From: Chlamydiales bacterium
GTDB taxonomy: Bacteria > Chlamydiota > Chlamydiia > Chlamydiales > CALTSX01
Assembly: GCA_051647685.1 (NCBI GenBank)
Contig: JBOFEG010000021.1
Span: 1,949-65,948, forward strand
Length of the DNA stretch: 64,000 bases
Reading direction: 5' to 3'
A program made the position numbers and the translations under genes. Below the pieces are notes generated by a model. It was not told the origin of the DNA. It saw only the letters and a list, made by a program, of their open reading frames with translations, and searched no databases. Shown in pieces: positions 3,819 to 55,397 of this stretch (position 1 is the first letter of the stretch; each line of letters starts with the position of its first letter).

Positions 3819-4871
3819 AGCTGCCATAGCCTCTACGACGGGTACTGCTCGAATGGCAACGCAAGGATCATGACGAGCAGTAGCTGTGTATTGTAAAACA
3901 CTGGGAATTTTTTCAATAAAGTCTACTGTACGTTGAGGCTTTTGAATGCTAGAAGTAGGTTTGAAGGGCATTCTGCAATAGATAGGCATACCATTTGCTA
4001 TTCCACCAAGTGTACCGCCACTATGGTTTGTTATGAAGGAAATATTTTCTGAATCATCAATGTAAAATTCATCATTACTTTGAGAACCTAATTTTTGTGC
4101 AGAGAGAAATCCATCTCCAATTTCAAATCCTTTGCATGCTGGAATAGACAACATAGCTTTTGCTAAATTTGCTTCTAACTTTTCATATACTGGATCTCCA
4201 AGTCCAATGGGTAGAGGAGTAGTAAATAATTCGACTATGCCCCCTATAGAGTCTCCCAATGACTTTACGGAATGTAGTAACTTAATAATCATTTGCTCTG
4301 TATTTGGGCATGCACAAAAAATGGGACTATCTATTATTTGCTGACGTACATCAGTAATGTTATGGTCGACATAAGATGGAGATGCTATATCACCGACAGA
4401 TCGGATATATGCTATCAGATCAATACCGCATAAATGCAAAATTTTTTTTGCAATGGCTCCGGCAGCAACTCTACAAACAGTTTCTCTGGCTGATGCTCTT
4501 CCACCGCCATAGGGATCAAAAATAGTATATTTTCTCCAATAGGTAAAACTTGCGTGTCCAGGACGTAAAAGTTTTCGTATAGGGGTATAATCATCTGCAT
4601 TATTATCTCTGTTAAAGATAATAATAGAGATAGGTGCTCCTGTTGTTTTTCCTTCAAATACTCCTGAGTAAATATGAGCAATATCTAGTTCTTGTCTAGA
4701 CGTAGTATGTATATTTCTACCCGGCTTTCTATAAGATAGAACATCGGTGATTTCTTTTTCAGATAACTCCAGTCCTGCTGGACAACCATCAATGACTACT
4801 CCATAAGCTTTTCCATGAGACTCACCCCATGTCGTTATGCGAAAATGAATTCCAAAACTATTGGTGGCCAT
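3732..4871 (-). CDS. aroC: chorismate synthase
   Basis: 379 aa with the N-terminus FRITTWGESHGKAYGVVIDGCPAG and GGRASARET-type motifs. Confidence 0.95.
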   Translation of the reverse strand: MATNSFGIHFRITTWGESHGKAYGVVIDGCPAGLELSEKEITDVLSYRKPGRNIHTTSRQELDIAHIYSGVFEGKTTGAPISIIIFNRDNNADDYTPIRKLLRPGHASFTYWRKYTIFDPYGGGRASARETVCRVAAGAIAKKILHLCGIDLIAYIRSVGDIASPSYVDHNITDVRQQIIDSPIFCACPNTEQMIIKLLHSVKSLGDSIGGIVELFTTPLPIGLGDPVYEKLEANLAKAMLSIPACKGFEIGDGFLSAQKLGSQSNDEFYIDDSENISFITNHSGGTLGGIANGMPIYCRMPFKPTSSIQKPQRTVDFIEKIPSVLQYTATARHDPCVAIRAVPVVEAMAALVLVDALIFNQSIDIKNITGKIRYTANI

Positions 4872-5402
4872 AATACCCAGGATTTATATCAGCATAAAAA
4901 CTACTAAGAATATCAAGAATTTCCTCAAAGGTCTTGTCGTCTACGACTATTGTACGAGATGGGATCTTTTTCATGTATTTCAAACGATCTTCATAAAAAT
5001 GATTACAATGAGAAATATCTTTTAATTTGGACAAAAAAGCAGGTGGATCCAAGAGAAGGCGTGAGTAGAGTGTTTTTTTTGCAATTTCAAGATAGATAAA
5101 CTCTCCTAGCTTCTGTAAGAAACTGACAACTTTTGCATTACAAATAGCCCCCCCCCTAGAGCAATAACTGTATTCGATTGATTCTGTAGAGAGAAAATTG
5201 CTTCAGATTCTAATATTCTAAATTTTTTTTCTCCAAACTTTTGGTAAATCTCTCGACAAGAATAGGGTGATTTGAATCGTTTTTGATATAATTTTTCTAT
5301 TATCCTATCCGTATCGATAAAGGAAAGGGACAAATTAACAGCAAGTTTTTGTCCAATAGTAGTTTTTCCACTTCTCGGCAATCCAAATAAAATAATATTC
5401 AT
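4858..5402 (-). pseudogene. aroK: shikimate kinase interrupted by a frameshift inside a G9 (C9 on + strand) tract
   Basis: ORF 5106..5402 carries Walker A (GLPRSGKTTIG) and ends shortly after ...VIALGGG. The adjacent frame reads on from the same tract as (GG)AICNAKVVSFLQKLGEFIYLEIAKKTLYSRL...DPPAFL... and joins track ORF 4858..5052. The two pieces together give about 181 aa, the normal size for a shikimate kinase. Confidence 0.85.
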
Positions 5403-6682
5403 GGCAAAATTCTCAAATCAGCTCCTAAGTTCTGCAAATCTTGCACAAAACTACTATATGTTTTCTTGATGGGATCTATTTCATGTATGATAGATGACCC
5501 AGCAGCACCGAGCGCTGCAACAGCCAGCGATAATATAACTCGATGATCTTTATGTCCGTATAACTCCGATGATCCTTGAAGATTAGATGATTCAATAATC
5601 ATTCCATCATCAGTTTCCCAAATTATCGCTCCCATTTTGCGCAGCTCCTTTGTCATTGTAGAGATGCGATTAGATTCTTTATGTTTTGCTATACTGCCAT
5701 TCATAAGACGTGTAGTTCCTTTTGCAAAACAACCCACTACTGCCAAAATAGTAATAGCATCAATACAATCATTGACATGAATATCCATGCCCTGCAGAAA
5801 GGAAGTTTTTTTAACTCGAATAGAGTTGTTTCTAAGTTCTAAATTAGCGCCCATTCTTTGTAGAATAGTAACTACTTCTTTATCGCCTTGTACATCACTA
5901 AAATCCACATTATATAAAGTTATTTCAGAGCCTGTGATTAAAGCTGCTACTAGTGGATAAGCTGCGGAACTAAAATCACCAGGGATATTTATATGAAAAC
6001 CTGGATAGGAAATCTTGCCTCTTATTTTATAATGGGAATAACCCGTTCGAAGATATGGAATCTTTAGCTTTTGTAGCCAATATAGAGTCATATCAATCCA
6101 AGGGCGTTCCCCGGGATTCTTTACAAATATATCTGTTATACCTTCTATGAAAGCAGCAGCAATAAGTAGAGCAGAGACAGGTTGAGAATCTTCTCCACAT
6201 ACGTGGATTGTACCTGAAACGGGAGGGCCTTTAATAATAATAGGTGCTCCTCCATGGGCCTGCGTTGCGTAGGCTAAAACTCTTAATTGCCGTAATCCAT
6301 CAATTAGAGGTCTTATGGGACGACTATTGCGAATGGAATAATCACCAGTAATAATAGTATGACCATTCGATAATCCAGCTATTGCCCCGATTAACCGAAA
6401 TACAAGACCGGAATTACCAGAATCAATGATATTTTCTGCGATTGGTAGATTACCGTCATTGCCCTCTATCATTAAATAATTGCAATGCTTCTTAATCCGA
6501 GTATGAAATTGGCGTGCTGCTGAAATCATAGCCTCTGTGTCGGGAGAATGCAAATAGTTTACAATCACCGATGTTCCTCTACCCATCATACCAAATATAA
6601 TGGCCCGAAGTGTATGGGATTTAGAGGGAGGTACGGTAATATTTCCGTTAAGAATACTTGGATTAATTAGTAGTTTTTTCAT
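5399..6682 (-). CDS. aroA: 3-phosphoshikimate 1-carboxyvinyltransferase (EPSP synthase)
   Basis: 427 aa with the PPSKSHTLRAIIFG motif. It overlaps aroK by 4 nt and aroB by about 20 nt, consistent with operon coupling. Confidence 0.95.
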   Translation of the reverse strand: MKKLLINPSILNGNITVPPSKSHTLRAIIFGMMGRGTSVIVNYLHSPDTEAMISAARQFHTRIKKHCNYLMIEGNDGNLPIAENIIDSGNSGLVFRLIGAIAGLSNGHTIITGDYSIRNSRPIRPLIDGLRQLRVLAYATQAHGGAPIIIKGPPVSGTIHVCGEDSQPVSALLIAAAFIEGITDIFVKNPGERPWIDMTLYWLQKLKIPYLRTGYSHYKIRGKISYPGFHINIPGDFSSAAYPLVAALITGSEITLYNVDFSDVQGDKEVVTILQRMGANLELRNNSIRVKKTSFLQGMDIHVNDCIDAITILAVVGCFAKGTTRLMNGSIAKHKESNRISTMTKELRKMGAIIWETDDGMIIESSNLQGSSELYGHKDHRVILSLAVAALGAAGSSIIHEIDPIKKTYSSFVQDLQNLGADLRILP

Positions 6683-54351: not shown

Positions 54352-54936
54352 ATGTTAAATTATAATGAGCTTATACAGAGATCAGATTGGAATAGTGTTA
54401 TGCAATTTTATAATGTAGAAACGCTTGCCAAGACTATTCCATTTAAAGAAGCAATTATCCTTGCATGTCGCATGCTTTATAATAAAGGATGGGATGGAGA
54501 AATACAAAATTATGCTACAGATTTGCTCCAGGCTATTCGTAGAAATAGTTCAAAAGAGTGGAATACTTGTTGGAAATTAGATATTTTACTAGGACTTGCG
54601 TGTGAAATTACGTTGAGATATGAAGAGAAGTATTTAGCTTATAAAGACGCCTCACTGAAAATACATCCAATTCCTGCATTTCTTCTAGTATTGTTAGCTG
54701 GATGTTATATTTCCCCAGGTATTCCTCCAGTTAATCGTAAAGAAGCTAAAAATTTACTTCTAGAAGCATTAACTTTAGAAAAAACAATTGAAGGCGCTGG
54801 TCTCATAAAACATATTTGTGAACTTAATGAGGAATGGGACGAAGTAAAATATTGGGATAAAGTTCTTGAAGAGACTACAAAGAAGAACTTACATAGTGAA
54901 AATTTATATCCCTCTTTTGTGGAAGACATTGTTTAA
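54352..54936 (+). CDS. hypothetical 194-aa helical protein, tandem paralog 2 (immunity-like position)
   Basis: Paralog of 53654..54235, start-to-start distance 698 bp, same length and same conserved blocks. Confidence 0.7.
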   Translation: MLNYNELIQRSDWNSVMQFYNVETLAKTIPFKEAIILACRMLYNKGWDGEIQNYATDLLQAIRRNSSKEWNTCWKLDILLGLACEITLRYEEKYLAYKDASLKIHPIPAFLLVLLAGCYISPGIPPVNRKEAKNLLLEALTLEKTIEGAGLIKHICELNEEWDEVKYWDKVLEETTKKNLHSENLYPSFVEDIV

Positions 54937-55030
54937 ATGTTACGACTTAATTACCGAAAAATCATAAAAACTTCTGAATTAAAATCCTAGAAAGACCTCA
55001 GAATTCACATATTCCTTACGGGGTAGGACA

Positions 55031-55397
55031 ATGAAAATTTTAGATAAAACAACAATGAAACATCTGTCCTTCCCGGATTTTGAGATAGAAAAAATTGAAC
55101 TATCTTTCGATAAGAGGGGGAGTAAAGATTTTTATTGAAGGAGCTTGGTTAAATATGGGGGAAGGTGTTGAACTTGGGAAAGGCATCTTATATTTTAATA
55201 ATTGGGAAAATTTTTCAATTAATAGATTTGATCCATATAAAGAAGAATGGGTACATTTAAATGAATCAATAATTGAATTGTTAAAAAACATTTGCGAAGT
55301 AAAATTTTCTGATTCTATAGTCTATTTATATGGATTTGGTAAACAGACTGGACAATGGCTAGAATGGAAATTCAAAAAAAACAGAAATGCATGCTGA
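55031..55397 (+). pseudogene. small hypothetical protein interrupted by a frameshift in a G5 run
   Basis: ATG 55031 gives MKILDKTTMKHLSFPDFEIEKIELSFDKRG, then the G5 run (55116-55120) and a stop at 55136. The +1 frame (track ORF 55095..55397) continues VKIFIEGAWLNMGEGVELGKGILYFNNWENFSINRFD... A G4 run would give one ~121-aa protein. Confidence 0.5.

Follow-up and report, generated by a model that had tools for sequence, protein, structure and literature searches.

Slippage-driven gene decay as the probable origin of frame breaks at mononucleotide runs in a chlamydia-like genome

Several unrelated genes are interrupted at mononucleotide runs in a stretch of 64,000 nucleotides (the window; contig JBOFEG010000021.1, positions 1,949 to 65,948) of a chlamydia-like bacterium related to the Simkaniaceae, among them genes for shikimate kinase (aroK), an FkbM-family methyltransferase, a NifS/SufS-like cysteine desulfurase, a pmp-like autotransporter and a TPR-containing protein. 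The source sequence is a metagenome-assembled genome (MAG) that NCBI labels 'Chlamydiales bacterium'; by exact look-up, S9, S15, L31 and the transporter fragment of the window correspond to its NCBI proteins MGL43483xx/MGL43484xx (locus tags ACRCSV_). The locus raises the question whether these genes are broken in the organism, broken in the assembled sequence only, or switched on and off by changes in tract length. We conclude that they are very probably genuine slippage-driven pseudogenes in a host-associated, AT-rich chlamydia-like genome, and the product of neither a switch nor a systematic assembly fault. We infer both slippage as the mutational mechanism and loss of function. The G+C content of the window is 32-38%, and it contains about 110 A/T runs of at least 7 nt; G/C runs of this length occur only twice, as C9 in aroK and as C8 in the TPR gene.

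Relatives at two distances were available for comparison. The nearest species-representative genome is L001, a MAG labelled as Simkaniaceae from blue-tit faeces with 79% AroA identity, which GTDB places in the genus CALTSX01, named Ca. Udofia. L001, L096 and L097 are other species, L097 being an ENA metagenome assembly of a sister species from sample LARS22-1. Closer to the window are contigs of two Logan short-read assemblies, ERR13998652 (L082, L094 and L095; about 98% nucleotide identity) and SRR13494436 (L081, L083 and L098; 96-99% identity). A previous reading of the window from its letters alone (the sequence-only reading) had called for a comparison with independent assemblies. Since ERR13998652 and SRR13494436 are independent samples with independent assemblies, they could be used for it. 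In these 96-99% identical relatives aroK, the FkbM gene, miaB and the TPR gene are intact, the orthologues being found in L081, L082, L083 or L095.

Frame breaks coincide with mononucleotide runs well above chance. The sequence-only reading had assigned interruptions to nine runs; all nine are present exactly where it had located them, and eight of the nine breaks could be mapped onto the run using homologues or near-identical relatives. The ninth, at the G5 of a small open reading frame (ORF), did not receive such confirmation. For seven sites the probability of finding such a run within the interval set by stop codons or alignment was 0.0003-0.13. The corresponding value for a T4 run at 40200-40203 was 0.82, so that this site depends on the homologue alignment only, and for the G5 run it was 0.03 if G/C runs are counted and 0.42 for runs of any base. 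Runs of at least 6 nt make up about 3% of the window, as estimated from run counts, yet they hold about 8 of about 14 single-base frame breaks by hand count. The directions of the indels are mixed (about 5 deletions and about 6 insertions). Additional breaks not listed in the sequence-only reading were found in a LysR gene, at the transporter N-terminus, in the TPR gene (two) and as a 19-bp deletion at 44406.

In the broken genes or next to them there is also damage of other types: deletions of 16, 19, 55 and about 378 bp, missing gene ends, an absent SDR gene and, in LysR, a nonsense codon; larger deletions occur in most of the broken genes. Additional independent lesions are present in the TPR gene, the pmp remnant, miaB, LysR and the transporter. 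The earlier view of LysR and miaB as cases of real decay thus holds, with an in-frame stop in LysR and deletions of about 55 bp and about 378 bp in miaB.

Long G/C runs are difficult on every sequencing platform. An error of sequencing or assembly would mean that the genes are intact in the organism and that the consensus miscounts the runs. In agreement with this, every single-base lesion is located in a run, no other lesion is present in aroK, FkbM and NifS, and two independent assemblies of relatives show C10 in aroK where the window shows C9. A similar ambiguity has been reported for the poly-G tracts of C. psittaci pmp genes (PMC3323650). In order to weigh this explanation, run lengths were compared over 42.6 kb of the window aligned with the ERR13998652 contigs at 2.18% substitutions, the runs being classed by the gene calls of the relative. 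For runs of 5 nt, 1 of 208 genic and 1 of 31 intergenic runs differed in length; for runs of 6 nt, 0 of 98 and 1 of 17; for runs of 7 nt, 0 of 43 and 4 of 8; for runs of 8 nt, 0 of 21 and 0 of 2; and for runs of 9 nt or more, 1 of 8 and 1 of 1. The two genic differences are those of FkbM (a run of 5) and of the aroK G10 tract. Run-length differences therefore avoid intact genes: among runs of at least 7 nt, 1 of 72 genic runs differed against 5 of 11 intergenic runs (Fisher p = 9e-5). This contrast points to real mutations filtered by selection, as random miscounts would strike genic runs proportionally.

Other observations also argue against miscounted runs. Intact ORFs of the window contain 79 A/T runs of at least 7 nt and six G/C runs of 6 nt in frame, and the mixed indel directions do not fit a platform that under-calls long runs. 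Lesions of other kinds occur in five of the broken genes, the C8 and G6 runs show base substitutions against the relatives in addition to their changed length, and the FkbM gene of the L097 assembly carries a frameshift of its own. Consequently, systematic homopolymer error, which the sequence-only reading had offered as one general cause, is unlikely to account for the breaks, with 71 of the 72 genic runs matching an independent assembly. For aroK alone an error is possible.

Several points weigh against gene decay as the explanation and have to be set beside these results. All tract lengths are those read in assembled sequences. If a protein-guided frameshift corrector was used to polish the MAG, it would have removed genic errors selectively and would mimic the contrast between genic and intergenic runs. 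The island that carries NifS, the transporter and LysR is absent from the relatives, which leaves these genes without a near-identical comparator. aroK and FkbM have a single lesion each and NifS has two, both at runs; in these three genes all lesions are homopolymer indels. The pairwise ratios of nonsynonymous to synonymous divergence (dN/dS, as pN/pS) of aroK (0.27), FkbM (0.34) and the TPR gene (0.31) are not clearly above those of intact neighbours. Finally, the intact and conserved operon around aroK would be odd for a fixed loss and would fit an error or a mixed population.

In the explanation that we prefer, gene decay, slippage indels would arise at runs throughout the genome. Selection would clear them from needed genes, leaving those in intergenic sequence and in genes no longer required. 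The dispensable set would comprise a lineage-specific island (LysR, the NifS/SufS-like gene and the membrane protein), FkbM, the pmp-like remnant and the TPR protein. The pseudogenes would thus have been made, and would still be eroded, by slippage at mononucleotide runs. Slippage-driven pseudogenisation is a well-known, ordinary process. Of the three causes put forward without preference in the sequence-only reading, slippage-driven decay in an AT-rich reductive genome is the one that the data favour, on the strength of the intact orthologues, the additional non-homopolymer lesions, the purged run-length differences and the independent decay of FkbM.

aroK (4858-5402, minus strand) forms a separate sub-case. 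It is damaged only by the loss of one nucleotide from a coding G10 tract, visible on the forward strand as C9 at 5148-5156. Alignment of L001 AroK to the window follows frame -3 down to 5148 and frame -2 from 5154; the coding strand reads G9, and G10 would yield LGGGAICN. L081 and L095 have C10, corresponding to coding G10, and an intact product of 181/182 residues. The C9/C10 difference is the only indel over 6.2 kb in comparison with L081 and one of four over 9.2 kb in comparison with L095. The neighbouring genes of the shikimate operon, aroB, aroA, aroC and aroDE, are intact and conserved. In the three other species L096, L097 and L001 the tract is interrupted (GGTGGAGGCG, GGCGGTGGTG and GGAGGAGGGG), and the G10 tract is restricted to this species-level group. 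On the window branch aroK shows 5 nonsynonymous and 3 synonymous changes as compared with 15 and 28 for its neighbours, a difference that is not significant (p = 0.10-0.24); each of the five nonsynonymous changes is located downstream of the tract. Relaxed constraint following a real frameshift would produce such a pattern, which is suggestive only, being non-significant in a region of strongly gene-dependent divergence. Synonymous divergence (pS) between the window and ERR13998652 ranges from 0.01 to 0.18 in neighbouring genes, a more than 10-fold spread that suggests strain recombination or a mosaic MAG consensus. No match came from scanning JGI metagenomes for an aroK tract of variable length. 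Exact look-ups in the contig index, which evidently does not include the source MAG, gave nothing for AroA of the window, a 565-residue protein, the transporter fragment and the frameshifted aroK and FkbM products, and hence no second record of the frameshifted alleles.

The aroK lesion would result from slippage that is very recent or polymorphic, or else from an error. We give a genuine slip, fixed or carried by the majority, a somewhat higher probability than a miscount or a mixed population. If the lesion is real, the strain has just lost chorismate synthesis, which its closest relatives still keep. We also considered that the G10 tract is a recently evolved slippery site, with a mixture of G9, G10 and G11 in populations and a shikimate pathway that is not lost but switched or throttled through slippage in DNA or RNA. 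This is quite unlikely in our view. It stays in consideration because the tract differs between near-identical strains, the lesion is the sole one in the gene and the rest of the operon is intact.

aroK also provides an argument for phase variation, in which reversible changes of tract length would turn contingency loci on and off. Here, G9 and G10 distinguish near-identical strains in a gene that is otherwise intact, and the only two G/C runs of at least 7 nt in 64 kb both lie at frame breaks. However, the aroK tract is not maintained in the three other species, and C8 and G6 are absent from the closest relative. Moreover, aroK belongs to core metabolism and falls outside the surface and restriction-modification classes. 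The pmp-like gene has its breaks at A runs and is devoid of signal peptide and beta-barrel, the gene with the C8 run has two more frame-breaking lesions, and the A/T tracts are just 7-8 nt long. Tract-length-dependent switching, likewise proposed from the letters alone, is thus very unlikely: the pmp-like gene is a dead remnant with its breaks at A runs and none at poly-G, the aroK tract is group-specific, and the remaining tracts belong to genes with several lesions.

The gene for the FkbM-family methyltransferase (Methyltransf_21; 14335-15026, plus strand) has lost one nucleotide in or beside G6 (14743-14748). The frame changes from +1 to +3 at 14733-14748, and one added base gives ESGGxCKVIDV. 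The corresponding sequences are GGAGGTTTT in L095, GGCGGCTCC in L001 and GGGGGGCT in the window, the relatives having GGAGGT or GGCGGC. The gene of L095 is intact and encodes 224 residues. In L097 the FkbM gene is frameshifted at another run (within 1773-1845), from A7 to A6; the same run is A7 and in frame in both the window and L095. This frameshift is a slippage event of its own, independent of that in the window. No protein-level match to FkbM was found in L096. FkbM thus appears to have been independently frameshifted or lost in sister species. Next to it, a 285-residue SDR gene stands between FkbM and a chorismate-mutase-like gene in L095 (4406-5316), and an SDR gene is present in L097 too. 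In the window the SDR gene is wholly absent at 15085/15086, where the sequence is about 910 bp shorter.

A 5.1-kb island (window 9247-14383) is absent from L095, the 98% relative, and from L001, where aroDE adjoins FkbM. It contains two intact ORFs, one of them for a class-I methyltransferase, together with a LysR remnant, the NifS/SufS-like gene, a HIT-like ORF and the membrane protein; the majority of its genes are decaying. The island may have been acquired recently, or it may survive here as a remnant and have been lost elsewhere. The remnant of the LysR-type regulator (10760-11465, minus strand) has a +1 shift at T4/G3 (11258-11264), a position hand-read from two frames, and an in-frame stop at 10979-10981. 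The NifS/SufS-like cysteine desulfurase gene (11480-12643, minus strand) has two frameshifts. At T8 (11801-11808) the coding strand would have gone from A9 to A8 (-1), and stop codons confine the shift to about 11797-11808. At T7 (12228-12234) the change would be from A6 to A7 (+1, or -2), confined by stop codons to 12218-12243. The gene matches its Pfam model in three fragments (model positions 2-134, 203-278 and 284-371), and the repaired protein gives one continuous alignment (3-379) to solved SufS/CsdB chains. The motifs of the pyridoxal-phosphate lysine (GHK) and of the catalytic cysteine (HCA) are kept. The remnant of an approximately 300-residue multi-pass membrane protein, a transporter (13143-14061, minus strand), carries two frameshifts as well. 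Its homologues of about 300 residues, collected by an exhaustive HMMER search, match the window successively in frames -3, -2 and -3; the frame changes fall at about 13938-13965, where no long run occurs, and at 13321-13340. A conserved AAFFFSITR motif puts the second shift in the run 13321-13327; the homologues have FFF, so that T9 would have become T7, or T6 would have become T7.

Transcriptional-slippage rescue would leave the frameshifts real in the DNA, with RNA polymerase slipping on the run and producing some in-frame mRNA. aroK, FkbM and NifS would be the candidates since they are otherwise intact, and the phenomenon is documented in AT-rich endosymbionts (PMC3017870). In Buchnera and Blochmannia, poly(A) rescue involves A/T tracts of at least 9 nt and frameshifts conserved between populations or species (PMC3017870). 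Here, however, the A/T tracts are 7-8 nt long and the relatives are in frame. NifS would require two independent corrections per transcript, and G tracts are not a documented substrate. We regard rescue as very unlikely.

The gene for a TPR-containing membrane-anchored protein (51822-53649, plus strand) has three frame-breaking lesions in comparison with L082, where it is intact and encodes at least 588 residues. These are a +1 change from CC to CCC (51912-51914), C8 (52367-52374) in place of the 7-nt CCTCGTC, and a 16-bp deletion at 52747; together they do not restore the frame. The break at 52738-52777 had been considered as a 5-bp CCAAT duplication, which was ruled out by the 16-bp deletion seen against L082. 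The label "toxin-like" given to this gene earlier has no support: only weak TPR matches were obtained, and no family, solved-structure or NCBIfam match for a toxin, with no separate homologue search made for this gene. Relative to the closest relative, C8 and G6 show substitutions to C or G in addition to the length change (CCTCGTC to CCCCCCCC and GGAGGT to GGGGGG). GGN codons likewise gave rise to the aroK G10 tract, and these G/C runs were created in a genome of 35% G+C.

Directly downstream of the TPR gene, two paralogous genes for proteins of 193/194 residues (53654-54235 and 54352-54936, plus strand) gave no family match. Their layout resembles that of immunity genes, a likeness of arrangement only. 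The segment of the window at 53.8-55.4 kb with these genes lies outside both flanking ERR13998652 contigs recovered, those of L082 and L094. The small orphan ORF pair that follows (55030-55397, plus strand) has a candidate +1 at G5 (55116-55120), and the frames would join with G4. No homologue was found in Pfam, NCBIfam, the fetched loci or plasmids, and no separate homologue search was made for the small ORF. Upstream of the TPR gene, a 1-nt deletion at 50984 in comparison with L082 (TTTCTTTT to T7) alters the C-terminal 30 or so residues of a hypothetical ORF (50893-51276), whose product has 127 residues in the window and 122 in L082.

The pmp-like autotransporter remnant (39482-41161, minus strand), whose homologues have about 1000 residues, is frameshifted at T7 (41005-41011) and T4 (40200-40203). 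At the first junction the frame passes from -1 to -3 at 41006-41009; the conserved SDLPVIKKNT requires A8 and the window has A7. At the second it passes from -3 to -2 at 40200-40203, where A5 is required and A4 is present. No signal peptide or beta-barrel is left in the remnant, about 200 internal residues are gone, and its alignment covers only about residues 26-780 of homologues with about 1000-1060 residues. The 1.65-kb segment is absent altogether from L082 and L083. The homologues carry PF12951 and PF03797; locally, PF03797 was found only in the neighbouring ORF 37779-39413 (minus strand). This ORF encodes an intact autotransporter of 544 residues with signal peptide, middle domain and beta-barrel, from which almost all of the passenger domain of the approximately 1000-residue homologues is missing. 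A paralogue of its middle domain forms the C-terminal part of the adjacent remnant. The miaB remnant (41223-42044, minus strand) lacks its roughly 55 bp and 378 bp in comparison with the intact genes of L082/L083, which encode 422/441 residues. A decaying DUF4795-like gene (43944-44733, plus strand) contains the 19-bp deletion at 44406 and A7 versus A6 at about 44101.

Some features of the remaining window were also noted. At a synteny break (26220-26366), L098 of SRR13494436 continues from a malate/lactate dehydrogenase gene into a 794-residue FtsK gene. In the window the dehydrogenase gene is followed by a citrate-synthase-like gene (26366-27508) and then by 950 bp free of ORFs; no protein-level match to FtsK was found anywhere in the window. 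Genes for tRNA-Ala(TGC) and tRNA-Ile(GAT) are adjacent at 21467-21628, a pair of the rRNA-spacer type that stands alone, as the window contains no rRNA. Overlapping ORFs at 17495-18785 had been considered as a programmed prfB frameshift, which was ruled out since they are two separate genes (Metallophos and CxxCxxCC).

Taken as a small case study and as a caution, this locus indicates that frameshifts in a MAG can be separated from homopolymer artefacts without reads. The method is to compare run lengths with independent, near-identical assemblies and to ask whether the differences avoid intact genes. The result would represent ongoing gene loss in an uncultured Simkaniaceae-related lineage, affecting an accessory island, an autotransporter, a TPR protein, miaB, FkbM and possibly aroK.

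Simple-sequence contingency loci are found in Haemophilus, Neisseria, Campylobacter and Helicobacter. aroK resembles them in its coding G/C tract of 8-10 nt whose length differs between near-identical strains. In contrast to these loci, aroK belongs to housekeeping metabolism, its tract is not conserved across species, the variation is seen between strains, and the remaining tracts lie in multiply damaged genes. In the Chlamydiaceae, switching has been proposed for the poly-G tracts of pmp genes (PMC3323650). The window shares with them a pmp-like autotransporter family with homopolymer frameshifts in it. However, the breaks lie in A runs of 4-7 nt, no long poly-G is present, and what is left is a 1.65-kb remnant lacking signal peptide and beta-barrel. 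Its absence from the closest relatives leaves no plausible switch, and the analogy to poly-G-dependent pmp expression drawn in the sequence-only reading fails for this dead remnant. The third system is the slippage erosion of Blochmannia and Buchnera (PMC3017870). In contrast to these, the organism studied here is a chlamydia-like relative of the Simkaniaceae known only from a MAG, the runs are shorter (mostly 7-8 nt), two sites are G/C, and no frameshift is common to several lineages, so that nothing suggests rescue. The likeness lies in an AT-rich genome with many A/T runs, in single-base run indels as the apparent first step of erosion with larger deletions later, and in the convergent loss of the same gene in sister lineages, here FkbM.

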